Positions 1 through 49,368 of a stretch of DNA of 49,368 nt are shown here, piece after piece. Below the pieces are notes generated by a model. That model was not told where the DNA came from, did no database searches, and saw only the letters and a list, made by a program, of their open reading frames with translations. Both the position numbers and the translations under genes were made by a program. The DNA is from Gloeomargaritaceae cyanobacterium C42_A2020_066 (GTDB lineage: Bacteria > Cyanobacteriota > Cyanobacteriia > Gloeomargaritales > Gloeomargaritaceae). The stretch spans positions 1-49,368 of the forward strand of contig JACYLR010000167.1 of the NCBI GenBank assembly GCA_015272465.1, written 5' to 3'. How positions within the stretch are numbered: position 1 is the stretch's first letter; every line of letters begins with the position of its first letter.

Positions 1-1455
1 CCCGTGTTGCTGGACAATGCTGCGGCAGATCGCCAGTCCCAACCCGGTGCCACCCCGCCGCCGACTATCCGAGGCATCGACTTGGTGGAACCGATCAAAC
101 ACCGCTTCTAATTGGTCAGCCGGAATACCCGGCCCCGTATCTGCCACATCAAACTGCACCGTGTCTCCCTGGGAGGAGATACTCACCCACACTTCGCCGC
201 CCGACTCGGAAAACTTGATGGCGTTACTCAATAAGTTAATAAGAACCTGGATGATCCGGTCGGGATGCGCTTCGAGAGAGACGGGCATTACCTGGGAGTT
301 CAGGTGAACGCTGCTGGCTTCCGCCAGGGTCAGGACACTCTCGATGGCCTGGGTGACCAGGTCGGCGGCATTGCAGGTTTGGAGACTGATCATCGCCCGC
401 CCCGAATCTAGACGATCCACCTCCAGGAGGTCTCGCACCAACCGCACCAATCGATCGGTATTTTTGTTGGCAATTTCCACGAGGCGCTGCCCCCGCTCGG
501 TGAGGGTGCCGAGTTGGCCCGTGGCGAGCAGCCCCAGGGCACCGTGAATAGCCGTGAGGGGGGTACGTAATTCGTGGCTGACTACGGCGATGAATTCATC
601 CTTCATCCGCTCCATCATCAGCCATTCTGTGATATCCCGCATGAAACAAACTCGGCCATAAATATCACCGTTGATGTTGCGAATCGGTGTGGAGTAGCAA
701 TCAAATGTTCGACCGTCCCCCAGGATGACGCGATCGGTATGGGTGGCCTCTGGTTCTGCATACTTCACCTCCATCCGGCGGGCAAACTCTTCGGGATTTG
801 GCACTTGGCTTGCCGTCTGCTGAATCAGATCCGGGAGAGACATCACTGCCAGGGCCGCCGGCCGAATCTGCCAGAGGTCGCAGAAACGCTGATTGTAGGA
901 GATGATGCGGCGGTGTTCATCCACCACCAGGATGCCATCGAGAGATGCCTCGGCTTGGGCGCGCAGCAGGGCGTTGCTGCGGGCCAGGGATTGCTCGACT
1001 TCCTGGCGCTGCGTAATTTCTTCTTGGAGCTGCTGGTTTTGGATTGCGAGGGCATTTCGCAAACGGGAAAGGGCAAGTTGGTGCTCCACCCGCGCCAGTA
1101 CTTCCTCAACCTGAAAAGGCTTGGTGATGTAGTCCGCGCCCCCAGCTCTGAAGGCTTCGACTTTGTAGGCGGGGGTATCGGCCGCGCTGAGGAAGACGAT
1201 GGGAATGTCTTGGGTGGCCGGATCGGCTTTGAGACGGCGACATACCTGGAACCCATCCATGTCGGGCATCATCACATCCAGCAAGATCAAATCCGGCCGG
1301 CCGGCCTTGATCGCTAAGAGTGCCATTGCCCCACTGAGGGCCTTACGCACCTCAAAGCCTTGCTTGGCGAGGATGGCGGACAATAGGCGCACATTTTGGG
1401 GGGTGTCATCGACAATCAGCAGGTCGCCGGTGCTGGCAGGGTCTGGAGGGGTCAT
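1..1455 (-). CDS. Response-regulator/histidine-kinase hybrid (REC-PAS-HisKA-HATPase_c); 3' end cut by the window edge
   Basis: Absent from the ORF track because it runs off the window. My minus-strand translation from the ATG at 1455 gives MTPPDPASTGDLLIVDDTPQNVRLL...DLILLDVMMPDMDG...ITKPF (receiver). This is followed by a coiled-coil linker, a PAS-like segment, the H-box FIAVVSHELRTPLTAI, and the N/G boxes LINLLSNAIKFS, DTGPGIP and GTGLGLAICRSIVQQHG. It starts 14 nt after the stop of the upstream kinase gene. Confidence 0.85.
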   Translation of the reverse strand, partial: MTPPDPASTGDLLIVDDTPQNVRLLSAILAKQGFEVRKALSGAMALLAIKAGRPDLILLDVMMPDMDGFQVCRRLKADPATQDIPIVFLSAADTPAYKVEAFRAGGADYITKPFQVEEVLARVEHQLALSRLRNALAIQNQQLQEEITQRQEVEQSLARSNALLRAQAEASLDGILVVDEHRRIISYNQRFCDLWQIRPAALAVMSLPDLIQQTASQVPNPEEFARRMEVKYAEPEATHTDRVILGDGRTFDCYSTPIRNINGDIYGRVCFMRDITEWLMMERMKDEFIAVVSHELRTPLTAIHGALGLLATGQLGTLTERGQRLVEIANKNTDRLVRLVRDLLEVDRLDSGRAMISLQTCNAADLVTQAIESVLTLAEASSVHLNSQVMPVSLEAHPDRIIQVLINLLSNAIKFSESGGEVWVSISSQGDTVQFDVADTGPGIPADQLEAVFDRFHQVDASDSRRRGGTGLGLAICRSIVQQHG

Positions 1456-1469
1456 TGGGTGGCGGTGCG

Positions 1470-4400
1470 CTAGGACGGGTGATCACAGAGGGGTGTGGTG
1501 AGGCTGAGAATCCGGTCGAACTGGAAGTTTTGCGTCCAGTCTCGCAGTTGAGCGGTGACCTCGCGGTGCTCCCCACTGCATTGATCCAGCAGGGTCAAAA
1601 TCTGCTGATCGGAACCGCGTTGGGCGGCGTGGTGTAATTCAAGCACCCAGGCTGGGGACAGGTTCTCTAGCGTCAGGGAAGGCCGGGGACTGCTGGAGGG
1701 TGACACCTGGGCAGCGTCGGGCTGGATCGGGTCAGGGGCCGGTTCTGCGATCTGGTAGCAGATTTTCAGGTGGTGGGCGATCTGCTGAAACAGGGCAGCC
1801 GGCCGGTAGGGCTTGAAGACCAAGCCATCAAAGCCAGCCGCGAGGATTTGGCCCTCGGTCTGGTCGAAAATGCTGGCGGTGAGGGCAATAATCACAGGCG
1901 GTTTAAGGCCCTTGTCAGCAGCCAGAGCTTTGATCCGGCCGGCCGCCTGGTAGCCGTCGAGGACGGGCATCTGCAAATCCATCCAGATCAAATCGGGCTG
2001 CCAAGCTTCCCACAGTTCCACTGCCCGTTGACCATTTTCCGCTTCCTGCACTTCAAAGCCGACTTGGGTGTGCATCCGACCCAGAAGTTTGCGATTGGTG
2101 GGTTGGTCATCCACAACCAGGATGCGGGGGATCGGCTCGCCTGGAGCAAGACCCACGATCCGCTGACTCGGGAAGGTGGGGGCGGCGGTGGACGGGTCGC
2201 GAGCCGAGATTTCAACGGGCAAGTACAGTTGGAACTGGCTGCCCTGGCCGGGGGTAGTGGTGACAGTGACCTGGCCCCCCAGCAGTTGAGCGAAGTGTTG
2301 GCTGATGGCCAGGCCCAAGCCCGTTCCCTGCTGGGCAAGGCGGCCGGCCGTGGCTTGGCTGAAGGGGACAAAGAGGGTGGCCAGTTCACCGGCGGTCATG
2401 CCTGGCCCCGTGTCACTGATGGTAAAGATTAAGTCAGTCCGCAGGTCAGAACTCCCTTGGGCACTGACTGTGAGATGAACAGCCCCCTTGGCAGTGAATT
2501 TGAGGGCATTGCCGAGGAGGTTGATCAGGATCTGGCGCAGCTTGGTCTCGTCCGTGCGAATCCAAGTGAGGTCGCTGGCCGGCCGCTGGACACTGAAATG
2601 CAATCCCTTGGTCGCGGCCTTGAGGCGAAACAGGCCCTCCAGACTGTCCAGCAAGCCATGCAGGTCGGTGTTACTTAGATTGACCTTGGTCTGGCCCGCC
2701 TCAATTTTGGCCATGTCGAGGACATCGCTGATCAGGGCCAGGAGATGGTCGCCGCTTTGGCCAATGATCTGAAGGTATTCCCGGGTTTGGGGGTTGAGGC
2801 TGGCATCCTGGCTCATCAGTTGGGCAAACCCCAGGATGGCATTCAGGGGAGTACGGAGTTCGTGGCTCATGCGGGCCAGAAACTCGCCTTTGGCCTGACT
2901 GGCGGCTTCAGCCGCATCGCGAGCTTGGGCAAGGGCGACGGCTTGGGCACGGGTCTGGTGCAGCAGATCCGCCTGTTGCAGGGCGATGCCCAGTTGACTG
3001 GCCAAGTGGGTGAGGAGGTCAATCTCGAGCGGCTGCCACGTCCGTACCTGGGTTTGGTAGACCCCCAAGAGACCCCAGGGCTTGGCTCCCATCCAGATGG
3101 GTACCACCAGGTAGGCGATGGCTTGGAGGCGGCTCATCAGGTCGAGGTATGCGGGGGTGCGCTGGATGGTTGCCAGGTCACCACAGGCGGCGAAGTGGGG
3201 CGCTGCGGTCAAGGTGGGCGGGGGGGCAGCAAACCAGAGATGCATCAAGCAGGTGGGGTCACTGAGCAGATTCTCGGTGATCGGCCGGCCGGCCGTCGAG
3301 CCAATCAGCGCGGGCAGGTCAGGTGCCACCGCCTCGGCAACAAACTCGCCGCCCCAGGTTTCGCTGAACCGGAAGATCAAACAGCGGTCGACCCGCAGCA
3401 GGGTGAGCAGTTCCTGGGTGGTCGTCGCCAGAATTTCCGACAGGTCGAGAGTCTGGCGGATGTTTTCCACCACCCGCAGGGTGGCCGCCTCCCGTTGGGC
3501 CTGCTGGATGAAAAACACCTCCTGTTGTTTGCGGGCCGTAATATCAAACAAAGAACCTCGGCAATTCACCGGCCGGCCGCCGTCGTCCCGCTCGACCACC
3601 ATTTCGTTCTGGAGCCAGCGGTAGGTGCCGTCCCGGTGGCGGAATCGATAGTCCAGTACCCTAGCCCCGCTGTCACAGAGAGCCTCCATCGCTTCAACCA
3701 CCCTGGCTTGATCCTCAGGGTGAATCTGGGAAAACCAGAGTTCTCCGTGGGTCAATAGTTCGGTAGCGGTGTAGCCCACAACTTTGACAATGCCTGGGCT
3801 GACGTAGGTGGGCGCGTAGGGTGGCTGGGGATTGCAGATGTAGAGTGCGCTGGGGCCTTCGGAAAGGAGGTACTGAATCTGCTCCTGGGCTGTTTTTAAG
3901 CTCAGGGCCAAATCACGCACAGGAGAAGCATCCCGCTGAATGCCCAACAGTCCCGTGATCTGGCCTTGGTCGTTGTGGAAGCAGCGATTGTAACTTTCGA
4001 TCCACAGGGGTGTTCTATCAACGCGTACCTTCTGTACGGTCATTTGCAATTCCCCCCGACTGAGCAATTGCCGCCACACCTCGCGGCCCAGTTCAGGGTC
4101 ATGGGCAAAAAAATCCAGGGGCCGAGCCATCAGAATGGGCTGATCGGGAAACCCAAACAACTCGCGGAAGCGGGCGTTGCTTTTAATCTGAAGCGGTTGG
4201 TTGAGAATCTGCGTCAGGGTCGCCTCTGGGTCGGACGCCGCTTCCCAGTCGAGGGGTGTGGGCAGGGCCATGAAAAAGACCCCATCAGGGGAGTGGGCGA
4301 AAAACCCATCCAGTTCCTGTTCGGCCTGTTTGCGGCGGCTGATGTCCTGGGCAAGCTTGATCAGTCCCACCGGCCGGCCGGCCGCGTCGCGCACCAGGGT

Positions 4401-4715
4401 ATTCGTGACCTGTACCCAAAGACTTGCGCCATCGGGCCGTAGATAGCACTTTTCTTGGGTAAAACTGGTGTGTTCCCCCGCCAAAAGTCTGGCCACCTCC
4501 GCCTGGGTCTGGGGCTGATCCTGGGGATGCGTCACCACCAAATAGGGCTGGCCCAACAAATCGGCGGCCGGCCGGCCCACCAGTTGGCAAAACCGGGCAT
4601 TCACCTGCCGCCAACGCCCCTCCAAGTCCACTTCAGCAATGCCCAAGGCATCCTGCTCCAGCAGAGCACGAAAGGCATCGGGCATACCCTCTGGCTGGGA
4701 ACTTAGCGCAACCAC
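1470..4715 (-). CDS. Multi-sensor hybrid histidine kinase (several PAS, one GAF-like, HisKA, HATPase_c, C-terminal receiver plus about 100 aa tail)
   Basis: 1081-aa ORF with the H-box MSHELRTPLNAILGF and boxes LINLLGNALKFT, DTGPGM and GTGLGLAIS. The receiver reads ILVVDDQPTNRKLL...DLIWMDLQMPVLDG...KP. The track start is GTG; an in-frame ATG at 4685 is an alternative start. Confidence 0.9.
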   Translation of the reverse strand: MVALSSQPEGMPDAFRALLEQDALGIAEVDLEGRWRQVNARFCQLVGRPAADLLGQPYLVVTHPQDQPQTQAEVARLLAGEHTSFTQEKCYLRPDGASLWVQVTNTLVRDAAGRPVGLIKLAQDISRRKQAEQELDGFFAHSPDGVFFMALPTPLDWEAASDPEATLTQILNQPLQIKSNARFRELFGFPDQPILMARPLDFFAHDPELGREVWRQLLSRGELQMTVQKVRVDRTPLWIESYNRCFHNDQGQITGLLGIQRDASPVRDLALSLKTAQEQIQYLLSEGPSALYICNPQPPYAPTYVSPGIVKVVGYTATELLTHGELWFSQIHPEDQARVVEAMEALCDSGARVLDYRFRHRDGTYRWLQNEMVVERDDGGRPVNCRGSLFDITARKQQEVFFIQQAQREAATLRVVENIRQTLDLSEILATTTQELLTLLRVDRCLIFRFSETWGGEFVAEAVAPDLPALIGSTAGRPITENLLSDPTCLMHLWFAAPPPTLTAAPHFAACGDLATIQRTPAYLDLMSRLQAIAYLVVPIWMGAKPWGLLGVYQTQVRTWQPLEIDLLTHLASQLGIALQQADLLHQTRAQAVALAQARDAAEAASQAKGEFLARMSHELRTPLNAILGFAQLMSQDASLNPQTREYLQIIGQSGDHLLALISDVLDMAKIEAGQTKVNLSNTDLHGLLDSLEGLFRLKAATKGLHFSVQRPASDLTWIRTDETKLRQILINLLGNALKFTAKGAVHLTVSAQGSSDLRTDLIFTISDTGPGMTAGELATLFVPFSQATAGRLAQQGTGLGLAISQHFAQLLGGQVTVTTTPGQGSQFQLYLPVEISARDPSTAAPTFPSQRIVGLAPGEPIPRILVVDDQPTNRKLLGRMHTQVGFEVQEAENGQRAVELWEAWQPDLIWMDLQMPVLDGYQAAGRIKALAADKGLKPPVIIALTASIFDQTEGQILAAGFDGLVFKPYRPAALFQQIAHHLKICYQIAEPAPDPIQPDAAQVSPSSSPRPSLTLENLSPAWVLELHHAAQRGSDQQILTLLDQCSGEHREVTAQLRDWTQNFQFDRILSLTTPLCDHPS

Positions 4716-4820: not shown

Positions 4821-5342
4821 CTAGGAATGGGGCCAGGCCAGCCAGCCTAGAATCGCCGTCAGCAATCCCAGGGTGAGGAGCACGAACCGGACTTCGGGGC
4901 CGGCCGGCCGCGGTGGGGGCGGGTTCAGATCCATCTCTAGCGGTGCCGGAGTTCGTGGCAGCGGCCGGCCGCTGATCGGTGGAGGCGAGGGGCGATCCTC
5001 CAGCCGCGTCAGGTCGGGGATCTGGCTCAGCCATTCTGGGTGTCGCCGCAGTTGGGGAGCTTCCAGGATATAGGCCACCCGCTGACTCTGCTGCCGAATG
5101 TCGCGCTGGGGGTGCTGGGCCAGTTGACGACAGAGAGCCAGGGCCTCGGCCCGCCGGCCGGCCGCCTCATAGGCTGTCACCAACCAGAGCTGCACCTCGC
5201 CCCCAAGCCGAGACCGGCGATCGCCCAAGTCCGCCGCCCGCTCCAGTTCCCGAATCGCCTCGCTATAGCGGCCCTGCTCAAAGGCGCGGCGGCCGGCCTG
5301 GAAATGGTGATCGATGAGATTCGCGACATCCGTACTATCCAT
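4821..5342 (-). CDS. TPR-like protein with a C-terminal hydrophobic anchor
   Basis: 173-aa ORF with an ATG start. It has one or two TPR-like helical pairs (GRYSEAIRELERAADL..., LVTAYEAAGRRAEALALCRQL), a Pro-rich linker, and a terminal LLTLGLLTAILGWLAW segment. Confidence 0.6.
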   Translation of the reverse strand: MDSTDVANLIDHHFQAGRRAFEQGRYSEAIRELERAADLGDRRSRLGGEVQLWLVTAYEAAGRRAEALALCRQLAQHPQRDIRQQSQRVAYILEAPQLRRHPEWLSQIPDLTRLEDRPSPPPISGRPLPRTPAPLEMDLNPPPPRPAGPEVRFVLLTLGLLTAILGWLAWPHS

Positions 5343-5365: not shown

Positions 5366-6136
5366 TTAGGGCCGGCCGATCACCGCCAGCCGCTGGATCT
5401 GGGCCTGACTGAACCCCGCCTCGGTCAGGGTCTGGAGACCGGCACGGGTTTGATAGCGCGCCTGGAGCCGGCCGGCCGCCTGGAACGCCGCTTCCGCCTG
5501 GGGTCTTTGGTGCAGGGCCAGGTAACTCACCGCTTGGGCCAGGAGGGGATGGGGATTCCGGGGTTCAAAGCGCTGGGCTTGGCTCTGGGCGGCCACCGCT
5601 TCGGCAAAACGCCCCTGGCGATCCAAACTCAGCCCCAAGTTATAGTAGGCCGTGCCATTCTGGGGATCCAGCCTGAGGGCCTGACGGGTGCTGGCCTCGG
5701 CCGGCCGGGGCCTGTCGGCAAACAGATAGACCACCCCCAGGGCATTGTAGGCTTCCAGGTTTTGGGGATCGAGGTGGGCGGCACGCTGGAGGAACCGGAT
5801 GGCCTCCCCATGCTGCCCCGTTTTGTGAACCGCCCAGCCCCGCATCACCCAGCCCGCCGCATAGTTGGGTTGGAGGGTGGTGGCCTGAGCTTGGGCTTCA
5901 GCGGCCGCAGCCCACTGGCCCTGTCGCCCCAAGGCAATCCCCAAACCTCGCCACGCAGCAGGTAGCTTGGGGTTCAGCCGCAGCGCTTCCCGAAAAGCCT
6001 GGGCAGCCTGGGTGGCATCCCCCACCGTCAGCGCGGCGCTACCTGCTTGAAAGGCTTCCTGGGCCGTGACCGTCCACCCCGCTCCTGCCCAGCCAATCGC
6101 CAGGCCGGCCGTAACCCCCACCACCCAGGCCCTCAC
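5366..6136 (-). CDS. TPR repeat protein with an N-terminal signal/anchor
   Basis: 256-aa ORF containing repeated 34-aa A..A...F..AL.L.P motifs (LRLNPKLPAAW, LQPNYAAGW, LDPQNLEAY, LDPQNGTAYYNLG, FEPRNPHPL). Its GTG start overlaps the upstream stop as GTGA. Confidence 0.75.
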   Translation of the reverse strand: MRAWVVGVTAGLAIGWAGAGWTVTAQEAFQAGSAALTVGDATQAAQAFREALRLNPKLPAAWRGLGIALGRQGQWAAAAEAQAQATTLQPNYAAGWVMRGWAVHKTGQHGEAIRFLQRAAHLDPQNLEAYNALGVVYLFADRPRPAEASTRQALRLDPQNGTAYYNLGLSLDRQGRFAEAVAAQSQAQRFEPRNPHPLLAQAVSYLALHQRPQAEAAFQAAGRLQARYQTRAGLQTLTEAGFSQAQIQRLAVIGRP

Positions 6137-6456
6137 GTCCCCGCGTGCTGATCGAGAAACGCCTGACGATTGCCATAGATCGGAAAAATCTTGTTCAGGC
6201 TGGTGATTTCCAGCAGGGTACGAATCTGATCGCTGGGCGCACAGAGGGAGAGGCTGCCCCCCTGAGTTCGCAGGGTCTTCAGGGCAGAAACCAAGGCCCC
6301 CAGTCCGGCACTATCGATAAAGGTCACCCCTTCTAGATCAACGAGGACATGAACCGGGCCGGCCGCCGCCGCCTCATGAATGTCCTGTTTGAGACTATCC
6401 CGACTGAGAATGTCTAGACGGGTCGCCGGGGTGACGATGGGAAACTTGCTGGCCAT
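6133..6456 (-). CDS. STAS-domain anti-sigma-factor antagonist (SpoIIAA-like)
   Basis: The sequence VLVDLEGVTFIDSAGLGALVSALKTLRTQGGSLSLC...IRTLLEITSLNKIFPIY is a typical STAS domain. I prefer the ATG at 6456 (MASKFPIV). The track ORF extends to a TTG at 6534 through a tandem repeat. Confidence 0.8.
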   Translation of the reverse strand: MASKFPIVTPATRLDILSRDSLKQDIHEAAAAGPVHVLVDLEGVTFIDSAGLGALVSALKTLRTQGGSLSLCAPSDQIRTLLEITSLNKIFPIYGNRQAFLDQHAGT

Positions 6457-33333: not shown

Positions 33334-33380
33334 TCGGGCCGGCCGCGCTATAACAGAGCCAGTTGCGGCGCGGGGGCGCA

Positions 33381-33968
33381 ATGCCCTACACCACCGATCA
33401 GTTAATCCAGATCCTGGAGCAGGAACTCCATGCCCACTGGCGCGGCGAGCGGGTTCTGCTCTCGGCGACCCAGCGGCTGGACAACCCGGTGATTGCCCGT
33501 GCCCTAGAACCGGAACGCCTGAGCATGGTGTTTGGCTACCAGGAGTTTCGCGCCCAGATTCACGCGTATCAGCGGCAGCATGGGGTTTCGGGGCTGGTCT
33601 GGCGGGCCTGCCGGTTTGGGTCCCACTGGGTGACGGTTCCTGAAGTCCATCCCCATCTGGTGCCGGTGGCCGGCGATAAGGAAATGCTGATGGCCCATAA
33701 GCCCGCCATTCTGGCCTTCTGGCAGCAGTGTACCCAAGCCCTCTCCCTGTGGGTTGCCGGATCACTCCCAGAACCCTTGACTGGGGCGGCGGCGGCCGGC
33801 CGGATTGACCAGGCCGAGTGGTTGGAGGTGGATGCCACGGCCACAGAACTGTACCTGGGCCTGTGCTGGGGCGATCCACGGGAGTGTCACTATGCCTGGG
33901 CGGCCCCCACATCGGGCTGCGAACGGCTGGTGGCAGCCCCCGGCTGGCCGAGTGCCCTGAAGATTTAA
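33381..33968 (+). CDS. Hypothetical protein, co-transcribed with cbiA
   Basis: 195 aa from the ATG at 33381 (MPYTTDQLIQILEQE...). Its stop lies 3 nt before the cbiA start. I recognise no domain. Confidence 0.55.
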   Translation: MPYTTDQLIQILEQELHAHWRGERVLLSATQRLDNPVIARALEPERLSMVFGYQEFRAQIHAYQRQHGVSGLVWRACRFGSHWVTVPEVHPHLVPVAGDKEMLMAHKPAILAFWQQCTQALSLWVAGSLPEPLTGAAAAGRIDQAEWLEVDATATELYLGLCWGDPRECHYAWAAPTSGCERLVAAPGWPSALKI

Positions 33969-41871: not shown

Positions 41872-42009
41872 AGGGTGCAGGTGGGGCGCTAGCGGCCGGC
41901 CGGGGATACAGGTGCAGCGGTATCAGGTCAAGGACGGGTGCCTGGGATCACAGACAACGCCTCATTCTGAACTACCGCCCATCTTCTGGGAATTGTAAAG
42001 GGCCAGGAT

Positions 42010-42025: not shown

Positions 42026-43081
42026 CTAGGCCACCGGAGTCCCCGCCACCGCCTGCAAACCCTGGGTGATCCGAGCCGCATCCAACTGGCGACCAATGAA
42101 AACCAAGCGGGTTTGACGGGATTCTTGGGGATGCCAGGGCCGATCGAAGTGGGTGGTGAGTCGCTGGCCCACCCCCTGCACCACCAGACGTAGAGGCTTG
42201 TGGGGCACTGCCACAAAGCCCTTGACTCGCAGGATATCCCAGGCTTCCAGGATTTGGCGCAGGGCTGTGGTCAAGCCTGGCAGCTCAAAAGCCTGATCCA
42301 ACACCACCGGGACTGCCATGATTTGGTCATCGTGGTCGTGATCTTCCTCTTCGTCGTGGTGGCTCGGCCGGCCGGCCAGGTTCGCCTCCACCGCAGCATT
42401 GAAGCCGATCAGCACGTCGGGCACCACCTGGCCTTGGATCGCCGCGATCAACCGCACGCCGGGCCGCAGTTGGCTGGCTAGCCAGGCTTCAACTCGCTGG
42501 CGCGCCGCCGCATCCACCAGATCTGTCTTGGTGAGGACAACCAGATCGGCACAGGCCAGTTGGTCTTCAAACAGTTCTTCCAGGGGTGTCTCGTGATCCA
42601 AATTGGGATCGGCCTGCTGCTGACGTTCGAGGGCTGCCCTATCGGCCACCGGACTGCCCTCGGCCAAGGCGGCACAATCCACCACGGTGACGACCCCGTC
42701 TACACTGGCCGCATGGCCCACGGCCGGCCACTGAAAGGCTTGGATCAGGGGTTTGGGCAGGGCGAGGCCGGAGGTTTCGATGACGATGCCATCCAGGCGA
42801 TCCCGATAGGCGAGCAGGCTTTCCATCGCCGGCAGAAACTCTTCCTGGACGGTGCAACAGAGGCAGCCATTGGTCAACTCAATCACCCGGCCGGCCGCCG
42901 TCTCCTCCTCGTCACACACCTGGCAATCCCGGAGCAAGTCGCCATCAATGCCCACCTCACCAAACTCATTGACCAGCACGGCCAGGCGTCGGCCACCATT
43001 GTTGACCAGCAGATGGCGAATCAGGGTGGTTTTACCGGCCCCCAAGAACCCGGTGAGGACAGTCACAGGTAATTTATGCAT
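42026..43081 (-). CDS. cobW: CobW/COG0523-family G3E GTPase metallochaperone
   Basis: It has the P-loop VLTGFLGAGKTTLIRHLL, a CxCC motif (GCLCCTV) and a His/acidic stretch HHDEEEDHDHDD. I prefer the ATG at 43081, 4 nt after the hupE stop. The track TTG start at 43111 would overlap hupE. Confidence 0.85.
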   Translation of the reverse strand: MHKLPVTVLTGFLGAGKTTLIRHLLVNNGGRRLAVLVNEFGEVGIDGDLLRDCQVCDEEETAAGRVIELTNGCLCCTVQEEFLPAMESLLAYRDRLDGIVIETSGLALPKPLIQAFQWPAVGHAASVDGVVTVVDCAALAEGSPVADRAALERQQQADPNLDHETPLEELFEDQLACADLVVLTKTDLVDAAARQRVEAWLASQLRPGVRLIAAIQGQVVPDVLIGFNAAVEANLAGRPSHHDEEEDHDHDDQIMAVPVVLDQAFELPGLTTALRQILEAWDILRVKGFVAVPHKPLRLVVQGVGQRLTTHFDRPWHPQESRQTRLVFIGRQLDAARITQGLQAVAGTPVA

Positions 43082-43085
43082 AGAT

Positions 43086-43712
43086 TCAGGCCCCGAAGAC
43101 GCCACTGACAAAAACCAGGCCCGCGCCGACTAGCAGCCACCCCAGGTTCCGCCGCCACCCCGGCCGGCCGAGGGCCACAAACAGGCTGTAGACGCCCACG
43201 CTAAGGGCCAGTTGGGTCAGGGTAAACCCCGCCAGGTAGGCCCCCAAGGGTGCGGGTTCAGCCCCAATAATGGACTCGCCGTAGGCATAGCCGTGACCCA
43301 CCCCCGCCAACAGCACCAAGGCCAACAGCAGAGCCGGCCGGCCGTGGGTCTCCCAGGCCAACACCAGCCCGGCCAGCACCACCGAGGCCGTCACCAACAG
43401 TTCACTGCCAGGAAAGTCATAACCGCCCAAGTGAATCCCTGTGCCCAAGGCCGCACTCACCCCAAACCCCAGGATCAGCAGCACCGCCCAGGGACGCGCC
43501 ACCAGGGTTGCCAGCAGGCCAACCCCTACCACAAAGGCCAGGTGATCTAAACCAATCACCGGGTGGGCGAGGCCAGAGAGCAGCCCCTCCCAACCCGTGG
43601 CCGGTAATCGTCCCCCCAAGCCGTGGTGGGCCAAGGCAGGTTCCGCCCCGACCCCGGCCAAAACAGCCCCAGCCCCGATTAATCCCCAACCCCGCTGTTG
43701 CTTGATTGCCAT
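43086..43712 (-). CDS. hupE: HupE/UreJ-family metal (Ni/Co) transporter
   Basis: The signal peptide ends ...EPALAHHGLGG, the processed N-terminal His motif typical of HupE/UreJ. Six hydrophobic segments rich in G/A/L follow. The ATG at 43712 has GGAGA about 7 nt upstream. Confidence 0.8.
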   Translation of the reverse strand: MAIKQQRGWGLIGAGAVLAGVGAEPALAHHGLGGRLPATGWEGLLSGLAHPVIGLDHLAFVVGVGLLATLVARPWAVLLILGFGVSAALGTGIHLGGYDFPGSELLVTASVVLAGLVLAWETHGRPALLLALVLLAGVGHGYAYGESIIGAEPAPLGAYLAGFTLTQLALSVGVYSLFVALGRPGWRRNLGWLLVGAGLVFVSGVFGA

Positions 43713-43872: not shown

Positions 43873-44261
43873 TACACGGTCACAGGTGGAATCTTCGCCA
43901 GCAGGGTTTTACGCAGGGGTGCGGGCCGCTCCGCCCAGGACAGGCTGCCATCCGGCCGGCCGTGGTAAAGGGCCGCGCAGTCTAACAGCGCCGTCACCGC
44001 CTCAGCCGCCGCGACGCCCCCACCGGGGAGTTGGCCAAACAAGTAGCTGGGTTTACCCGGCGCTGCCAGGCAGACGGAGCACGCCTGACTACAGACATTC
44101 ATGCAGGCCACGGGCTGGAGTCGCACCGCTGAGCCAAGGGGCCAGTCCTGCACCGCAGCTTCCAGAGAGGCTAGCAACCGCTCACCACCGCTGGTGCCTA
44201 CCCGCTGGCTACCCTGCCAGGTACTGGCACAGGTGGTACAGACAAAGAGACAGTGGCTCAT
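43866..44261 (-). CDS. DUF1636-family predicted metal-binding (thioredoxin-like ferredoxin fold) protein
   Basis: MSHCLFVCTTCAS...ACMNVCSQACSV is a Cys pattern typical of DUF1636 proteins, which are found next to cobW in B12/cobalt clusters. I prefer the ATG at 44261. The last 7 nt overlap the 3' end of the convergent tRNA-Lys. Confidence 0.7.
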   Translation of the reverse strand: MSHCLFVCTTCASTWQGSQRVGTSGGERLLASLEAAVQDWPLGSAVRLQPVACMNVCSQACSVCLAAPGKPSYLFGQLPGGGVAAAEAVTALLDCAALYHGRPDGSLSWAERPAPLRKTLLAKIPPVTVYG

Positions 44262-44535: not shown

Positions 44536-44834
44536 GCATAACACCACCGGCCGGCCGGTGGGTCCATTGATGCGCTGGGAGGTGATTCCCGCTGCGGGGT
44601 ACTACGAGTGGTAAAGCCTGGGCAAGGGGAAGCCACCTCTCTGCATCCCTATCCAGGACACAAGCTGTTTGCACTGCTCACCAACTAGGCCCGCCTCGGC
44701 ATTGGTATACCTAGCTCACCAAGAACCTATTCTGGTCAAGGCTTACACACTGTATGCGGCCTCTAGTGCTGCAAACAGGGACGTGGTGCTTCAAAACTAT
44801 CGATGCCAGATAGAGAATCGCTACCATTAGAGTG

Positions 44835-45188
44835 ATGACATTGAAGGTGCTTATGCCATTGGCAATTGTGGCTGAATCTGCTCCTCTGCAAGCCAATCAA
44901 GACGGCGTGGTTCTTGTTGGGAAAACCCGTGTCACGTTGGATACTGTAGTGTATGTGTTTAATCAGGGTGCGACAGCAGAGGAAATCGTTTATCGGTATC
45001 CATCACTAAACCTGGCTGACATTTACGCCACAATTGCCTTCTATCTCAAACATCAATCGGAAGTAGAAGCTTATCTGCAACAGCGACAGCAGCAATCGCA
45101 AGAGATTCGTGCAATGAACCAAGCAAGGTTTGACCCGCAGAACTTGCGAGATCGCCTGCTTACCCGTAAAGCAGAACAGGAAGCATGA
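44835..45188 (+). CDS. DUF433-family protein (antitoxin-like, HTH)
   Basis: VLVGKTRVTLDTVVYVFNQGATAEEIVYRYPSLNLADIYATIAFYL matches the DUF433 pattern (G.TR..v..v......G.s.eEI...YP.L...dI.aal.Y). It lies in an AT-rich islet. The start is ambiguous among 44832 (GTG), 44835 and 44853 (ATG). Confidence 0.75.
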   Translation: MTLKVLMPLAIVAESAPLQANQDGVVLVGKTRVTLDTVVYVFNQGATAEEIVYRYPSLNLADIYATIAFYLKHQSEVEAYLQQRQQQSQEIRAMNQARFDPQNLRDRLLTRKAEQEA

Positions 45189-45232
45189 TAAGGCTTCTGG
45201 TTGATGAGAACTTCGATAACACAATCCGGTAG
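45185..45232 (+). pseudogene. Truncated remnant of a DUF5615 (PIN/Mut7-C-like) toxin gene
   Basis: The ATG overlaps the DUF433 stop as ATGA, the classic TA coupling. The reading frame encodes MIRLLVDENFDNTIR and then TAG. M.R.L.DENl is the characteristic DUF5615 N-terminus. No continuation is recognisable in any frame. Confidence 0.55.
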
Positions 45233-45356
45233 CAATAAGCAAGTAGTGAAATCATGGCTATGCTAAGTCTAAAGATGCATCATAAGGTATCTCTATTAAC
45301 TGACTGACTGCCGTACCTTTGAGAACAAAGTGACTTAGATCGCCCATTCCAGGGGC

Positions 45357-45722
45357 CTAAAACTCATCTGGTGGTGTTGTTACAGCTTCTGAACCCTGAC
45401 CCTCTCGACGGCTCCCCAACAAGTCCAGCCGCTCAACGCGAATCAGAGGCTTCTGGCGATCCTCACCGGTGTTCCGATCCTTCCAGTGATCAAAGCGCAG
45501 GGCACCCGTAATGCCAATTAAACTGCCTTTCTTTACATAATTGGCTGCCACCTCGGCCGTCTTACCCCAAATCTCTAATTCAAACCAGTCGGGTGGGTCA
45601 TCGCGCTTGCTGCGCCGATCTACCGCCAGGGTGACACTGCACTTTACACTTCCCGACTCAAAGTATTTGACCTCCGGATCCCGGCCGGCCCGACCCACCA
45701 AGTGGACAATGTTGACACTCAT
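45357..45722 (-). CDS. ssb: Single-stranded DNA-binding protein
   Basis: The OB-fold sequence is VNIVHLVGRAGRDPEVKYFESGSVKCSVTLAV...WFELEIWGKTAEVAANYVKKGSLIGITGAL, with an acidic tail ending PPDEF. I prefer the ATG at 45722. Confidence 0.9.
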   Translation of the reverse strand: MSVNIVHLVGRAGRDPEVKYFESGSVKCSVTLAVDRRSKRDDPPDWFELEIWGKTAEVAANYVKKGSLIGITGALRFDHWKDRNTGEDRQKPLIRVERLDLLGSRREGQGSEAVTTPPDEF

Positions 45723-45828: not shown

Positions 45829-46635
45829 CTAGCGAACTAGGGGTTCTTCCGCCACCTTGGTCAGGTCAGCAGACTGGAGCAGATTGACCCAATCCTGCTT
45901 CAGCGTCTCACTAGTGGGATTAGCTTGGCGCAGTTCCGCAAGGCTCGAGAGGGTCTCGTACCACAATCCAGCACTGGCGTAGATGTAGGGCCGATCACCA
46001 GCCTCAATCCGAGACAGACTGCTGCGCAACTCGGCGGAGGGAGCAACCCGCTGCACCCAACCGGCGGCGTACAGGTCACCGGAAGGGTCGTTGGGGTTGC
46101 AGCGCACCACGATAGACCAAGCGTAGTTTTTGCCGACCTCCAGCCCACTCAGGTTCTGGGGCATATCCACCCGCATCACGCCCACCCCACTCGGGGTCAG
46201 GCTTTTCTCGAAGATTTCAACTCCCCGGCTGTCGGTGAGCGTGAAGATCATCTCCTGACTTTGGGTGGGAGGCACGTAGAACATGAAGGATGGGCGAGCA
46301 GCAATCGTCAACCCGAGATTGGACTTAGGCACGAGAGCAGTCAGCCGCTTGGAACCCACGGGGCAGAGGCCACCGCGAGAGGCCCCGCCTTCCCGGTTAG
46401 CCGGGAGCGTCCCGGCGGGGGGCACAAAACTGACTAGGCTACTGCTTGGCCGAGCCGCGGTGGTGTTTTTCTGGGTTTTACGCTGCACCCAATTCAGCAA
46501 CTCCGACCAAGGGGCTGGCGAAGCAGTTTGGGCGACGGCCGGCCGGGCGAGGAGCACGGCCCCAACACCACCCAAGATGAGCATAGAAGCCGCAAGGGGG
46601 GCGAGCAGTAAAGTGGGTTTCTTGAACGTAGTCAT
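45829..46635 (-). CDS. DUF928-domain secreted protein
   Basis: The signal peptide is MTTFKKPTLLLAPLAASMLILGG.... The family-typical body reads FVPP..G.P....GGASRG..C...LTALVP...LGLT....PSFMFYVP...EVGKNYAWSIVVRCNP.DPSGD...GWVQR...YASAGLWYETLSSLAELR. Confidence 0.85.
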   Translation of the reverse strand: MTTFKKPTLLLAPLAASMLILGGVGAVLLARPAVAQTASPAPWSELLNWVQRKTQKNTTAARPSSSLVSFVPPAGTLPANREGGASRGGLCPVGSKRLTALVPKSNLGLTIAARPSFMFYVPPTQSQEMIFTLTDSRGVEIFEKSLTPSGVGVMRVDMPQNLSGLEVGKNYAWSIVVRCNPNDPSGDLYAAGWVQRVAPSAELRSSLSRIEAGDRPYIYASAGLWYETLSSLAELRQANPTSETLKQDWVNLLQSADLTKVAEEPLVR

Positions 46636-46960: not shown

Positions 46961-49174
46961 ATGTCCTTCCTCTCGGCCCTGAGTCAACGCTGGCAAGCGT
47001 TTCTGGAGCAGCAACCCTGGTTACAGCAGGGGTTGGCTCGGGTGGGTGCCCCTGCTGTGGCTGCCAGTCTGGTGATGGGCGGTGGCCTGACAGGTCTCTG
47101 GTGGCTGGGTGCCCTCCAGCAATTGGAATTGGGGGCTTACGATCAACTGGTACGGTTACGCCCCGATGAAGGCCCTGACCCGCGCTTTCTGGTGGTCGCG
47201 GTGACCGAGTCGGATATTCAAGCCCAAGCTCGTTGGCCCCTATCCGACCAGACTATTGCCACGCTGATTGATCGCCTGACTCGCCTCCAGCCCCGTGTAA
47301 TTGGCCTGGATATTTATCGGGATATTAAACACGAGCCGGGTCACGCCCGGCTGGCGGCGCAATTCCGCGCCAACCCGCGCCTGGTAGCCGTCTGCAAGCG
47401 GGAGGACAAACAGGATCGGGGAGTCCCACCGCCGCCTTCTATACCCAGGGAACGGTGGGCGGAGCGAGTAGGCTTTGCGGATTTGGTGGTGGATCCGGGG
47501 GGGATTGTCCGCCGTAGCTTACTCTCTGGGCAGCCTCAGGCCCAGGGACTGTGCCAGACGCCCTTTTCTCTGGGCTTTCAGGCCGCACTCCATTACCTGA
47601 AGGCTGATGGAATTACACCTCAAATGCTGCAACCCCAGGGGTATCTGGTGCTGGGGCCGCAGATTATCCCCCCCCTTACTCAGAATTGGGGGGCCTACCA
47701 CCGGGTGGATACGGGGGGCTACCAGATTGTCCTGAACTACCGTTCGGCCAGGGACTCGGTGCGCCAAGTGACCTTGACTGAGGCGCTCAAGGGCACCCTG
47801 AAACCAGAATGGGTACGTGACAAGATTGTTCTGATTGGGGTAACGGCAGACAGCACCAAGGATACGTTCTATACCCCCTACAGTGCGGGCCTGCGGGAAA
47901 ACCAGAAGATGCCGGGGGTGGTGATCCATGCCCAGACCGCTAGTCAACTGCTCAGTGCAGTGCTGAACGGCCGGCCGTTGGTGTGGGCGTGGCCAGGGTG
48001 GGCAGAGGGCCTCTGGATCTGGATTTGGGGTTTGGTGGGGGGGGTGATTGCCTGGCGGATTCGCCATCCAGGTGCGTTGGGTGCGGCCCTGCTGGGGGGC
48101 AGCTTGGTGGTGAGCGGCATTGTCTACACCCTATTTCTCCAGGGGGGGTGGTTGCCCTGGGTGACACCTGTGTTTGCCCTGGTGCTCTCCGGGGGAACGG
48201 TGGTGGCGTTTATTGCCTATCGGGAGCGCCAAGAGAAGGAGCAAATTGCCGGGCGGGTGCGGGTTCAGGAGGAGCAAATTACGGTTCTCCGGAAAATGCT
48301 GGTGGAAACCCAGGCGGCGGCCGAGCGCACGGAAGCCGCGGGTCTGGCCGCCCCGGCTGCCCGGGATGGGTCAACCCTGGCCGGCCGCTATCGAGTCCGC
48401 AAGGTATTGGGGGAAGGGGGGTTCGGTCGCACCTATCTGGCCCAGGATGTGCAGCGACCGGGGCAACCGGAGTGTGTGGTCAAGCAATTGCGGCCGGCCC
48501 GCAGTGATCCCAAGTTTTTACTGCTAGCTCGGCGGCTATTCAACACTGAGGCGGAAATTCTGGAGATCTTAGGGAAGCACAAGCAAATTCCCCAACTACT
48601 GGCCTACTTTGAGGAAGATCAGGAGTTTTACCTGGTGCAGGAGTACATCAAGGGCACCGGCCTAGAGAAGGAGCTGGTGGAGGGCCGGCCGCAATCGGAA
48701 ACCTATACGGTTGCCCTACTGCGGGGGGTGCTGGAAGTCCTAGCCTTTGTCCACGAACACAAGGTGATCCATCGCGATCTGAAGCCAGCCAACATCATTC
48801 GCCGGGTGACGGACAACCGGCCGGTGTTGATCGACTTCGGGGCGGTGAAACAGATGCAGCCCCAGGAACGGGAGGAGGAGGAGGCCCAAACCATTGCCAT
48901 TGGCACCCGTGGCTATTCCCCTCCAGAACAGATGGACGGCCGGCCGCAATTGAGCAGTGACATTTATGCCCTAGGGATGATCGGGATTCAAGCCCTGACT
49001 GGGGTGCCGCCCCGCCAACTGGAACTGGATCGCCACACCTTGACCCCCCTCTGGCATAACCGGGCCCAAGTGCGGCCTCAACTGGCCAAAATCCTTGACA
49101 AAATGGTGCAGTACTTTCCCTCGGAACGCTATCAATCAGCGCAGGAGGTCATTCGCGACTTGAAACAACTGTGA
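46961..49174 (+). CDS. CHASE2-sensor transmembrane Ser/Thr protein kinase
   Basis: The CHASE2 region reads LELGAYDQLVRLRP...FLVVAVTESDI...WPLSD...VIGLDIYRD...GVVIHAQ, followed by 3 TM segments. The Hanks kinase part has GEGGFGRTY, VVKQL, HRDLKPANI, DFG and GTRGYSPPEQ. I prefer the ATG at 46961; the track start is 46883. Confidence 0.85.
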   Translation: MSFLSALSQRWQAFLEQQPWLQQGLARVGAPAVAASLVMGGGLTGLWWLGALQQLELGAYDQLVRLRPDEGPDPRFLVVAVTESDIQAQARWPLSDQTIATLIDRLTRLQPRVIGLDIYRDIKHEPGHARLAAQFRANPRLVAVCKREDKQDRGVPPPPSIPRERWAERVGFADLVVDPGGIVRRSLLSGQPQAQGLCQTPFSLGFQAALHYLKADGITPQMLQPQGYLVLGPQIIPPLTQNWGAYHRVDTGGYQIVLNYRSARDSVRQVTLTEALKGTLKPEWVRDKIVLIGVTADSTKDTFYTPYSAGLRENQKMPGVVIHAQTASQLLSAVLNGRPLVWAWPGWAEGLWIWIWGLVGGVIAWRIRHPGALGAALLGGSLVVSGIVYTLFLQGGWLPWVTPVFALVLSGGTVVAFIAYRERQEKEQIAGRVRVQEEQITVLRKMLVETQAAAERTEAAGLAAPAARDGSTLAGRYRVRKVLGEGGFGRTYLAQDVQRPGQPECVVKQLRPARSDPKFLLLARRLFNTEAEILEILGKHKQIPQLLAYFEEDQEFYLVQEYIKGTGLEKELVEGRPQSETYTVALLRGVLEVLAFVHEHKVIHRDLKPANIIRRVTDNRPVLIDFGAVKQMQPQEREEEEAQTIAIGTRGYSPPEQMDGRPQLSSDIYALGMIGIQALTGVPPRQLELDRHTLTPLWHNRAQVRPQLAKILDKMVQYFPSERYQSAQEVIRDLKQL

Positions 49175-49184
49175 GGAGGGGACG

Positions 49185-49368
49185 ATGGCGGAGCCGATTA
49201 CCCATGTCCAATTGCGCTGGGAAGACCCGCTAACTGGGGAACTCCAGCAACCAATTTTGGTTCTGCCCGTGGCGCTGGGGCGGGAGTTTAGCCAGATGCC
49301 CGCGCTGATCAAGAACCAGTCTGTGACCCGTGTGGTTCTCAACGACAAGCAGGTTTCCCGTTACCATG
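49185..49368 (+). CDS. FHA-domain protein, N-terminal fragment (continues beyond the window)
   Basis: It begins at an ATG 11 nt after the kinase stop, preceded by GAGGAGGGG. The sequence LVLPVALGREFSQMP...VTRVVLNDKQVSRYH fits the FHA GR...SR.H core. It is not in the ORF track because it runs off the edge. Confidence 0.65.
   Translation, partial: MAEPITHVQLRWEDPLTGELQQPILVLPVALGREFSQMPALIKNQSVTRVVLNDKQVSRYH

Follow-up and report, generated by a model that had tools for sequence, protein, structure and literature searches.

Contig JACYLR010000167.1 (assembly GCA_015272465.1), which we analyzed over its whole length of 49,368 bp and refer to as the window, is densely populated by a single 8-bp palindrome, GGCCGGCC. 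The word occurs as 129 overlapping matches that merge into 106 loci (84 of the form (GGCC)2, 21 (GGCC)3 and one (GGCC)4), which corresponds to 2,613 occurrences or 2,147 loci per Mb, or about one locus per 460 bp. GGCCGGCC is a lineage-specific alternate highly iterated palindrome (HIP), unrelated to the well-known cyanobacterial word HIP1 (GCGATCGC). Reasoning by analogy with HIP1, we lean, by a small degree, towards the view that its complete sequence is read by one factor, the likeliest candidate being an orphan 8-bp methyltransferase. A reading of the window by eye, made before this analysis and referred to here as the sequence-only reading, had counted 106 loci at one per 450-500 bp against a zero-order expectation of 3-4; the count was exact, and the other two figures agree with our values of about 460 bp and 3.7 copies.

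The window has a G+C content of 61.0% and is approximately 94% coding. The number of copies of GGCCGGCC expected per strand was 3.7, 8.7 and 16.5 under Markov models of order 0, 2 and 3, respectively, and approximately 4 under a model for which the loci were masked in the window before training. The sequence-only reading had proposed such a Markov comparison, genome-wide and at orders 3-5; within the window, the 129 copies stand against 3.7-16.5 for orders 0-3. In 100 dinucleotide-preserving shuffles we obtained 4.83±2.23 copies, with a maximum of 11; the observed/expected ratio was 27 against these shuffles and 35 against the order 0 model. GGCCGGCC ranked first among the octamers of the window, the next 12 octamers all overlapped it, and it headed the list of palindromes at a level 20-fold above any unrelated palindrome. 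Spacing between the loci was Poisson-like, with a coefficient of variation (CV) of 0.97 where random placement gave 0.85-1.15. HIP1 itself occurred twice only, which is the chance level, and both copies lie where they had been read by eye:

5217-5224, strand '.', HIP1 (GCGATCGC) copy, chance level
29713-29720, strand '.', second and last HIP1 copy, chance level

Another known alternate HIP, GGGATCCC, had zero copies in the window.

An excess of this kind might be a by-product of composition, that is, of the 61% G+C, of codon usage (GCC, GGC, CGG, CCG) and of amino-acid content. The preferred codons do make up the word (GCC accounts for 52% of Ala, GGC for 41% of Gly and CGG for 41% of Arg), the density of sites rises with local GC content, and some viral contigs of very high GC content carry a several-fold excess of GGCCGGCC. 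However, the coding sequences contained 121 copies, compared with 17.5±4.0 (maximum 29) when synonymous codons were shuffled within each gene, which preserves both proteins and codon usage, and with 5.9±2.5 when the order of codons was shuffled. The excess over these codon-aware null models was thus 7- to 20-fold, and, together with its rank among octamers, it agrees with the earlier view that GGCCGGCC is a specific word and not GC-rich low complexity. Other all-G/C octamers showed no enrichment in the window, and the 8-bp palindromes GGGGCCCC, GCGCGCGC and CGCCGGCG were absent from it. In addition, the top palindrome of Gloeobacter violaceus (62% G+C), CCGGCCGG, reaches an observed/expected ratio of only 1.55 (Elhai supplementary table, PMC4390886), so that high G+C by itself is insufficient to produce GGCCGGCC. 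When viral contigs were scanned for C(GGCC)3G, most hits were contigs of 65-74% GC with a several-fold excess, and none was convincingly alike. One of these (L133, IMGVR_UViG_3300031454_000036, 7.8 kb, 74% GC) contained 21 GGCCGGCC loci where about 3 were expected; the same overlapping octamers were on top there, and other all-G/C words were frequent too.

Comparison with related genomes provided further evidence. Relatives were found through members of 90%-identity protein clusters and are represented by nothing more than short contigs assembled from public sequencing runs. Relative A comes from run ERR14788557 (contigs L081, L082, L084 and L085) and relative B from run SRR15359042 (L083). 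They share synteny with the window at 85-92% nucleotide identity and contain GGCCGGCC at 1.2-2.5 loci per kb, with one copy of HIP1 in approximately 35 kb. Given that three independent assemblies carry the word, an artefact is ruled out. Across the approximately 28 kb that align with relative A (88-89% identity), 48 of the 59 loci were common to both genomes, and those that differed did so mostly by one substitution, with transitions and transversions both seen. In this alignment of orthologous regions, a check that the sequence-only reading had suggested, site differences were nearly all point substitutions. Third-codon positions were mismatched in 4.8% (8/168) of cases within sites and in 22.8% outside them (p=4e-10); with the stricter control of other runs of at least 8 G/C, the values were 3.1% and 27.8% (p=2e-12). 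The 8-mer was perfectly conserved in 84% of cases for GGCCGGCC, in 32% for other all-G/C 8-mers and in about 44% for octamers generally. Relative B showed the same trend, and in the stretch covered by three genomes five of the seven loci were identical in all. In other words, existing sites are kept almost invariant, synonymous positions included, and these positions are about 9-fold more conserved in sites than in other all-G/C runs. Codon shuffles and this comparison with other all-G/C runs rule out composition and codon usage, and we regard a purely compositional origin as very improbable.

We also determined which part of the word carries the signal. The base 3' of the word was G (and that 5' of it C) in 166 of the 212 half-sites, and flank positions +2 to +8 held only 0.00-0.04 bit, so the consensus is C-GGCCGGCC-G with information at ±1 only. 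This form, CGGCCGGCCG, has 84 copies in the window and is the usual flank form, as had been noticed by eye, and the flank-consensus check proposed at that time gave the same result. Since the flanks hold no information beyond ±1, there is no larger element around the word. The phase-shifted octamer CCGGCCGG had been described as rare outside the extended runs. Among its 78 copies, 23 lie within (GGCC)≥3 runs, 53 share 6 nt with a GGCCGGCC locus and only two, at 1799 and 48817, are independent; the description thus holds for independent copies and fails for the 53 that overlap the flanks of ordinary sites.

Sub-words were counted on both strands with the GGCCGGCC loci masked. Isolated GGCC (1,036 copies vs approximately 1,010-1,120 expected) and isolated CGGCCG (52 vs 44-54) occurred at the expected level, and isolated GCCGGC numbered 32 vs 60-64 expected. 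Variants of the octamer with one deviating base were slightly depleted (49 vs 70-75 expected), and their distribution by position (22/13/18/22) was not skewed to the ends, as a 6-bp core would lead one to expect. In the comparison with relative A, isolated GGCC was conserved in 65% of cases, as were other G/C tetramers, and isolated CGGCCG in 2 of 10, which is the background rate. The one-off variants were not conserved either: 18 of 43 were unchanged, and 5 of 43 were perfect sites in relative A. The complete 8-mer alone is therefore enriched or conserved, and the sub-words GGCC, CGGCCG and GCCGGC are not. Of the cores that the sequence-only reading had put forward, GGCC and CGGCCG are disfavored, and only the whole-word, FseI-type site fits the data.

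The tandem structure of the word raises the alternative that it spread by (GGCC)n tetranucleotide slippage or as a dispersed miniature mobile element, for example one like the repetitive extragenic palindromic (REP) sequences. (GGCC)3-4 occurs at 22 loci, and in a few copies the palindromic arms extend further, with at least 4 extra complementary pairs at 4 loci where 1.1 were expected. These arms had also been noticed by eye and are present: an 18-bp palindrome, CCACCGGCCGGCCGGTGG, lies at 44544-44561 in an intergenic region downstream of a DUF1636 gene, and another of 18 bp, CTCGGCCGGCCGGCCGAG, at 13947-13964. Further perfect palindromes around sites measure 18 bp (32693-32710) and 16 bp (4959-4974 and 15278-15293). 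However, a slip of 4 nt would shift the reading frame at the 95% of loci that are coding, and the number of (GGCC)3 is what overlapping words predict (23 vs 23.9). A (GGCC)n microsatellite was rejected because site differences between the relatives are point substitutions, apart from a single 4-nt alignment gap at 15282. REP sequences, miniature inverted-repeat transposable elements (MITEs) and other dispersed repeats were rejected because the copies share nothing beyond the core. We give such an origin next to no credence.

With respect to genes, 101 loci are coding (53, 27 and 21 in the three frames) and five are intergenic, in agreement with the earlier description of the word as sitting in both coding and non-coding DNA. 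The tripeptides AGR, GRP and RPA, which are the translations of GGCCGGCC, are over-used 4.4- to 6.9-fold relative to amino-acid composition, and AGR is the most frequent tripeptide in the proteins of the window; the permutations ARG, RGP and PRA are under-used. Moreover, 35 of the 40 GRP and 26 of the 33 RPA are encoded by 9-mers that contain the whole word (GGCCGGCCG and CGGCCGGCC), and GCCGGCCGN, which encodes 41 of the 44 AGR, includes 7 of the word's 8 bases. Given the presence in all three frames, the intergenic loci and the tripeptide bias, GGCCGGCC is a DNA-level, not a protein-level, signal, one that overrides protein coding. The 106 loci are listed below with their coordinates, repeat class, flanking bases (5'/3') and context; the strand is given as '.' for every row, and CDS denotes a coding sequence. 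The extended runs that had been read by eye at 1295-1306 and 3283-3294 ((GGCC)3) and at 21709-21724 ((GGCC)4) are all in place.

1295-1306, (GGCC)3, C/T, CDS frame 2 (AGR)
1937-1944, (GGCC)2, C/G, CDS frame 2
2342-2349, (GGCC)2, C/G, CDS frame 2
2577-2584, (GGCC)2, T/G, CDS frame 1 (RPA)
3283-3294, (GGCC)3, C/G, CDS frame 2
3571-3578, (GGCC)2, C/G, CDS frame 0 (GRP)
4372-4383, (GGCC)3, C/G, CDS frame 2
4566-4577, (GGCC)3, C/C, CDS frame 0
4898-4909, (GGCC)3, G/G, CDS frame 1
4963-4970, (GGCC)2, C/G, CDS frame 0; 16-bp palindrome 4959-4974
5156-5163, (GGCC)2, C/G, CDS frame 2
5291-5298, (GGCC)2, C/T, CDS frame 2
5370-5377, (GGCC)2, G/G, CDS frame 0
5470-5477, (GGCC)2, C/G, CDS frame 2
5699-5706, (GGCC)2, C/G, CDS frame 1
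6103-6110, (GGCC)2, A/G, CDS frame 2
6357-6364, (GGCC)2, G/G, CDS frame 2; relative A: GGCAGGCC
7390-7401, (GGCC)3, G/G, CDS frame 0
7715-7722, (GGCC)2, C/G, CDS frame 1
7761-7768, (GGCC)2, C/A, CDS frame 2; relative A: AGCCGGCC
8132-8139, (GGCC)2, C/T, CDS frame 2; relative A: absent
8327-8334, (GGCC)2, C/T, CDS frame 2
8736-8747, (GGCC)3, G/G, CDS frame 0
9120-9131, (GGCC)3, C/G, CDS frame 0
9477-9484, (GGCC)2, C/G, CDS frame 0
9751-9758, (GGCC)2, C/G, CDS frame 1
10156-10167, (GGCC)3, C/T, CDS frame 2
12814-12821, (GGCC)2, C/G, CDS frame 0
13891-13898, (GGCC)2, C/G, CDS frame 0
13950-13961, (GGCC)3, C/G, CDS frame 0; 18-bp palindrome 13947-13964
14936-14943, (GGCC)2, C/T, CDS frame 2
15282-15289, (GGCC)2, C/G, CDS frame 1; 16-bp palindrome 15278-15293
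15742-15753, (GGCC)3, C/G, CDS frame 0
16135-16142, (GGCC)2, C/G, CDS frame 1
16428-16439, (GGCC)3, C/A, CDS frame 1; relative A: GGCCGGCTGGCC
16621-16628, (GGCC)2, C/G, CDS frame 1
16694-16705, (GGCC)3, C/A, CDS frame 2
17307-17314, (GGCC)2, C/G, PPIase frame 0 (NGRPI; outgroups KG[SA]x); relative A: AGCCGGCC
17529-17536, (GGCC)2, A/G, Ycf4 frame 2 (QAAGLA; three outgroups QGAELA)
18263-18270, (GGCC)2, C/G, CDS frame 1
18633-18640, (GGCC)2, C/G, CDS frame 2
18951-18958, (GGCC)2, C/G, CDS frame 2
19854-19861, (GGCC)2, C/G, CDS frame 0
19905-19912, (GGCC)2, C/G, CDS frame 0
20081-20088, (GGCC)2, C/G, CDS frame 2
20426-20433, (GGCC)2, C/G, CDS frame 2
20817-20824, (GGCC)2, C/G, CDS frame 0
20918-20925, (GGCC)2, A/C, CDS frame 2
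21044-21051, (GGCC)2, C/T, CDS frame 2
21315-21322, (GGCC)2, C/G, CDS frame 0
21709-21724, (GGCC)4, C/C, CDS frame 1 (RPAGRP)
23973-23980, (GGCC)2, C/T, CDP-alcohol phosphatidyltransferase gene, frame 2
24189-24200, (GGCC)3, G/G, CDP-alcohol phosphatidyltransferase gene, frame 2
24446-24453, (GGCC)2, C/G, intergenic
25399-25406, (GGCC)2, C/G, CDS frame 2
25678-25689, (GGCC)3, T/G, CDS frame 2
26269-26280, (GGCC)3, C/G, CDS frame 0
26445-26452, (GGCC)2, C/A, CDS frame 2
27165-27172, (GGCC)2, C/G, CDS frame 2
27254-27261, (GGCC)2, G/G, CDS frame 1
28278-28289, (GGCC)3, T/G, CDS frame 0
28376-28383, (GGCC)2, C/G, CDS frame 2
28688-28695, (GGCC)2, C/A, CDS frame 2
29513-29520, (GGCC)2, C/G, CDS frame 2
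30532-30539, (GGCC)2, C/G, CDS frame 1
31181-31188, (GGCC)2, C/G, CDS frame 2
31333-31344, (GGCC)3, C/A, CDS frame 2
31721-31728, (GGCC)2, C/A, CDS frame 2
31861-31872, (GGCC)3, C/G, CDS frame 2
31899-31906, (GGCC)2, C/G, CDS frame 1
32210-32217, (GGCC)2, C/T, CDS frame 2
32698-32705, (GGCC)2, C/G, CDS frame 2; 18-bp palindrome 32693-32710
33271-33278, (GGCC)2, C/G, intergenic
33337-33344, (GGCC)2, G/G, intergenic; relative A: absent
33794-33801, (GGCC)2, C/G, CDS frame 2
34125-34132, (GGCC)2, C/G, CDS frame 0
34515-34526, (GGCC)3, C/C, CDS frame 0
34643-34650, (GGCC)2, C/G, CDS frame 2
34678-34685, (GGCC)2, C/G, CDS frame 1; relative A: absent
34913-34920, (GGCC)2, C/G, CDS frame 2; common to all three genomes
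35036-35043, (GGCC)2, T/G, CDS frame 2; relative B: GGCCGGTC
35404-35411, (GGCC)2, G/G, CDS frame 2; relative B: GGCCGGCG
35596-35603, (GGCC)2, G/G, CDS frame 2; common to all three genomes
36074-36081, (GGCC)2, C/G, CDS frame 1
36222-36229, (GGCC)2, C/G, CDS frame 2; common to all three genomes
36471-36478, (GGCC)2, C/G, CDS frame 2; common to all three genomes
36728-36735, (GGCC)2, C/G, CDS frame 1; common to all three genomes
37455-37462, (GGCC)2, T/G, CDS frame 2
38325-38332, (GGCC)2, G/G, CDS frame 2
39970-39977, (GGCC)2, C/C, CDS frame 1
40107-40114, (GGCC)2, C/G, CDS frame 2
41894-41901, (GGCC)2, C/G, intergenic
42366-42377, (GGCC)3, C/A, CDS frame 2
42722-42729, (GGCC)2, C/A, CDS frame 1
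42889-42896, (GGCC)2, C/G, CDS frame 2
43162-43169, (GGCC)2, C/G, CDS frame 0
43336-43343, (GGCC)2, C/G, CDS frame 0
43954-43961, (GGCC)2, C/G, CDS frame 0
44549-44556, (GGCC)2, C/G, intergenic; centre of 18-bp palindrome 44544-44561
45683-45690, (GGCC)2, C/C, CDS frame 2
46537-46544, (GGCC)2, C/G, CDS frame 1
47969-47976, (GGCC)2, C/G, CDS frame 0
48379-48386, (GGCC)2, T/G, CDS frame 2
48492-48499, (GGCC)2, C/C, CDS frame 1
48683-48690, (GGCC)2, G/G, CDS frame 0
48938-48945, (GGCC)2, C/G, CDS frame 0

The genes of the window include those for sensor kinases, ABC and RND transporters, Ycf4, TamB, CobA/HemD, RecQ and Amt. A gene for a CDP-alcohol phosphatidyltransferase (23878-24393, + strand, Pfam E=2e-37) lies right after the TamB-like open reading frame and holds two of the sites. 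Several other 6-bp palindromes are avoided in the window when observed counts are compared with maximum-order Markov expectations: GGGCCC (3 vs 28), AGGCCT (2 vs 15.5), CTGCAG (1 vs 20), GGATCC (4 vs 21), GGCGCC (6 vs 27) and CCATGG (5 vs 19). This looks like restriction avoidance, the opposite of the enrichment of GGCCGGCC.

The host is a cyanobacterium, as it encodes the photosystem I (PSI) assembly protein Ycf4 (17491-18054, Pfam E=2e-79) and the best protein matches are all cyanobacterial. Among 5.8 billion proteins, the nearest homologues outside its own clade were 67-71% identical for Ycf4, 54% for the RND pump and 49% for RecQ, and the nearest matches of a CHASE2 kinase were 56-58% identical, the best nine all coming from Gloeomargarita. 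A RecQ search of species-representative genomes gave a best match of 49%, the lineage not being represented there, and protein searches of JGI data did not find it; both terminal genes of the window are singletons at 90% identity. Judged from these protein comparisons, the lineage is phylogenetically isolated, and one gene hints that Gloeomargarita, the closest known relative of plastids, is its nearest named relative.

In twelve other cyanobacterial loci, four of which are the nearest Ycf4 relatives and have the same Ycf4-PPIase(-KAS) gene order, HIP1 was the top palindrome at approximately 0.4-2.7 per kb (11 of the 12 loci fall between 1 and 2.7 per kb), and GGCCGGCC had zero copies. The sequence-only reading, which saw a HIP-like word where HIP1 would be expected, is thus supported by the occurrence of GGCCGGCC in all frames and in non-coding DNA, by its conservation in two relatives and by its absence from the other lineages sampled. 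Four Gloeomargarita loci (L211-L214) were enriched in neither HIP1 nor GGCCGGCC. In these four loci CGGCCG had 0 copies where 8-10 were expected, CGATCG had 0, and GGCC and GATC were at about half their expectation; they show a general avoidance of palindromes without any HIP. Codon alignments show how individual sites came about and that they are derived. In Ycf4, the QGAELA of three outgroups became QAAGLA in the window (G GCC GGC C), and in PPIase an outgroup KG[SA]x became NGRP. Sites have arisen through point substitutions, some of which replaced amino acids conserved in other lineages. The PPIase gene (16784-17494), when compared with L086-L088, also contains the position of a HIP1 site that is common to three outgroups (QGDRI, GGC GAT CGC) and whose counterpart in both the window and relative A is GGG GAT AAG (QGDK). 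This difference reflects either the decay of HIP1 in the present lineage or a gain of HIP1 in the outgroup clade. To say that GGCCGGCC stands in place of HIP1 is consequently a description, for the sister group may have had HIP1 or, like Gloeomargarita, none.

The distribution of sites also differs between resident and acquired DNA. Site density tracks the G+C content of genes (Spearman 0.79), and two stretches of low GC content (0.47-0.54), 10167-12814 and 44557-45682, carry no GGCCGGCC. The two stretches are probably of more recent foreign origin, although the former lies in a PAS-GGDEF-EAL gene (9939-13490) that is also found in relative A. In the relatives, strain-specific inserts with no counterpart in the window (L081 2702-4596, L083 1410-2346, L084 4168-6067 and L085 5306-6519) have a GC content of 0.39-0.53, encode among others a P450 and a hexapeptide transferase, and contain one site in 6.2 kb where about 12 were expected. 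This scarcity indicates that sites accumulate in resident DNA and are not imported with insertions. In practical terms, GGCCGGCC distinguishes resident from recently acquired DNA in these genomes.

How could such a word become so frequent? Following what has been proposed for HIP1, we suggest that one sequence-specific factor reads complete GGCCGGCC, and that this reader would most likely be an orphan 8-bp (FseI-type, GGCCGGCC) DNA methyltransferase. The methylated palindrome would then feed the pathway proposed for methylated HIP1, either as a mark of resident DNA for uptake and recombination in natural transformation or in strand or self discrimination during repair. Changes from near-cognate to perfect words would be favored by selection or by methylation-directed repair, so that new sites would accumulate, and perfect sites would be protected once made; recently acquired low-GC DNA would have yet to gain them. 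Methylated HIP1 raises the transformation of PCC 7002 up to >100-fold, and the effect of non-homologous HIP1 sites needed methylation (10.1101/2024.09.10.611283). HIP1 abundance also co-varies with DNA-uptake machinery, and an uptake-signal hypothesis for HIP1 exists (10.64898/2026.06.24.733823), and alternate HIPs co-occur with cognate methyltransferases (PMC4390886).

The same observations can be read as the product of a drive without function, in which a methyltransferase together with methylation-directed or very-short-patch repair ratchets near-cognates to perfect sites and mends their decay, the abundance being a by-product. Perfect sites are raised about 30-fold and one-off variants slightly lowered, as one-way conversion predicts; the 5 of 43 one-off sites that are perfect in relative A and the random spacing fit as well, and Elhai's model admits over-representation without function, which has been suggested for 'exceptional' alternate HIPs (PMC4390886 section 3.4). 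However, since G-meC (methylated cytosine after G) is already present in GGCC and GCCGGC sites, Elhai's ratchet, as we interpret it, cannot build the 8-mer from a methylase of such specificity, so that an 8-bp enzyme would be required here too; this argument, together with the lack of enrichment or conservation of isolated GGCC, disfavors GGCC and CGGCCG as cores. Sites have also been made at the cost of replacing otherwise conserved amino acids, transitions and transversions both occur at site differences, unlike a repair bias limited to T:G, and the available DNA contains neither a repair nor a methylase gene of this kind. We consider a functionless drive unlikely, albeit a serious candidate.

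A third explanation is a word bound by a protein independently of methylation, such as a DNA-uptake sequence or the site of a nucleoid or recombination protein, and selected directly. The density of about 2 per kb, the use of every frame along with the imprint on peptides, the conservation and the scarcity in acquired DNA all parallel known uptake sequences. These sequences are non-palindromic, however, which speaks against the parallel. The published uptake-signal hypothesis for HIP1 (10.64898/2026.06.24.733823) is in its favor, but the transformation effect of non-homologous HIP1 sites depended on methylation. We regard direct selection of an unmethylated word as improbable.

Several points weigh against our own reading of GGCCGGCC as an alternate HIP read by an 8-bp methyltransferase. 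A search for methyltransferases, Vsr-like and nicking enzymes, which the sequence-only reading had called for across the genome, found none in the window and none among the 35 kb of contigs from the relatives, and the methylation step is drawn wholly from analogy. To our knowledge, 8-bp-specific methyltransferases are rare. The conservation of synonymous positions fits selection and a continuing biased-repair drive alike, and gains and losses of sites are not polarisable, given that the three genomes are about equidistant (9-11%) and without a close outgroup. The regular spacing that a structural role might predict was absent from the window, although the quasi-periodicity on a scale of tens of kb that Xu et al. 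2018 describe for HIP1 would call for a sequence longer than 49 kb. Finally, the data comprise one 49-kb region and its orthologues, so any statement about the whole genome extrapolates from these.

Neither Elhai 2015 (97 genomes, text and supplementary tables; PMC4390886) nor Xu et al. 2018 reports GGCCGGCC, and it does not appear in the accessible parts of the text and supplements of a 2026 survey that covered every palindromic octamer in 389 genomes. In the remaining literature searched, it turns up in the sampled papers as a cloning site only. Thus, alternate HIPs as such are already known, and GGCCGGCC as a lineage-specific member, which was not found in the literature searched, is newly described. 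What purpose HIP1 serves has been a question for about 30 years. Current ideas invoke a repair ratchet directed by methylation, the structure of the chromosome, or a signal for uptake or recombination that depends on methylation, and they are difficult to tell apart as long as one word and two methylases are common to nearly all genomes with a HIP. The present lineage provides an independent replicate, with an unrelated word, the same density, the same conservation signature and an imprint on proteins. If our reading is right, we predict that a cognate methylase recognizes the complete 8-mer, that FseI fails to cut the genomic DNA and that DNA bearing the word transforms better. GGCCGGCC would also be relevant to any attempt at transforming the organism. 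More broadly, and quite tentatively, it is possible that the HIP phenomenon is independent of the sequence of the word and has been rebuilt from scratch in this isolated lineage with a word unlike HIP1, with a swappable reader (an orphan 8-bp methyltransferase, for example) attached to a conserved pathway of self-DNA recognition (uptake, recombination or repair). If so, comparison with HIP1 genomes and with the HIP-less Gloeomargarita would point directly to the reader and the pathway.

Outside the HIP family, three systems resemble GGCCGGCC in part. In core genomes, the DNA uptake sequences (DUS) of Neisseria and the uptake signal sequences (USS) of Pasteurellaceae reach about 1-2 per kb; they lie in all frames, leave a peptide imprint, and are conserved and scarce in foreign DNA. 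GGCCGGCC shares their density, frames, peptide imprint, conservation and scarcity in foreign DNA; they differ in being non-palindromic and in that their reader, a receptor (ComP) or uptake machinery, is known. The FseI restriction-modification system has GGCCGGCC as its specificity. The 8-bp word is identical, so proteins that read exactly this sequence exist. However, genomes normally avoid the target of a restriction enzyme that is active in them, whereas GGCCGGCC is enriched 30-fold, and the available DNA encodes no such enzyme or methylase. The very-short-patch repair of E. coli (Vsr/Dcm) illustrates that methylase-linked repair can raise a cognate and lower near-cognate sequences, the direction seen for GGCCGGCC, but it acts on T:G mismatches only and its effect is <2-fold on a 5-mer, compared with 30-fold on an 8-mer here.

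The alternate HIPs are closer. Those known include GGGATCCC (Synechococcus JA-3-3Ab and JA-2-3B'a), CAGGCCTG (Synechococcus PCC 6312), TCGATCGA, GGCGCC (Calothrix PCC 7103), rCCGGy and GCsGC. As in those cases, a different GC-rich palindrome is hyper-abundant where HIP1 is at the chance level; CAGGCCTG contains GGCC too, and GGGATCCC has also been shown to be conserved. GGCCGGCC differs in consisting of two tandem GGCC units and in that its conservation is shown here, which has never been done for CAGGCCTG.

Like HIP1 itself, GGCCGGCC is a palindrome of 8 bp, rich in GC, which ranks first among octamers and is followed by its own overlaps. Its density of 2,613 per Mb falls within the range of HIP1 (300-2,700 per Mb, at observed/expected ratios of 55-228; Elhai Table 2, PMC4390886). 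Both words occur in every reading frame of genes as well as in non-coding DNA, and their sites are conserved across related genomes beyond control motifs and codon preference, as Xu et al. 2018 showed for HIP1. In addition, without the full word around it the inner hexamer is not enriched, and Elhai reports the same for CGATCG (PMC4390886). On the other hand, the sequence of GGCCGGCC is unrelated and contains neither GATC nor the CGATCG core, so that the HIP1 methylases DmtA and DmtC cannot be its readers. One-off variants of HIP1 are over-represented and biased to the first or last base, whereas those of GGCCGGCC are neither; this excess and bias characterize HIP1 and are not demanded of the class. 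GGCCGGCC is also partly extended outward by C...G and often overlaps itself in triplets, (GGCC)3. Taken together, GGCCGGCC matches the HIP family in being a palindromic GC-rich octamer and in its rank, density, use of frames, conservation and inner hexamer.

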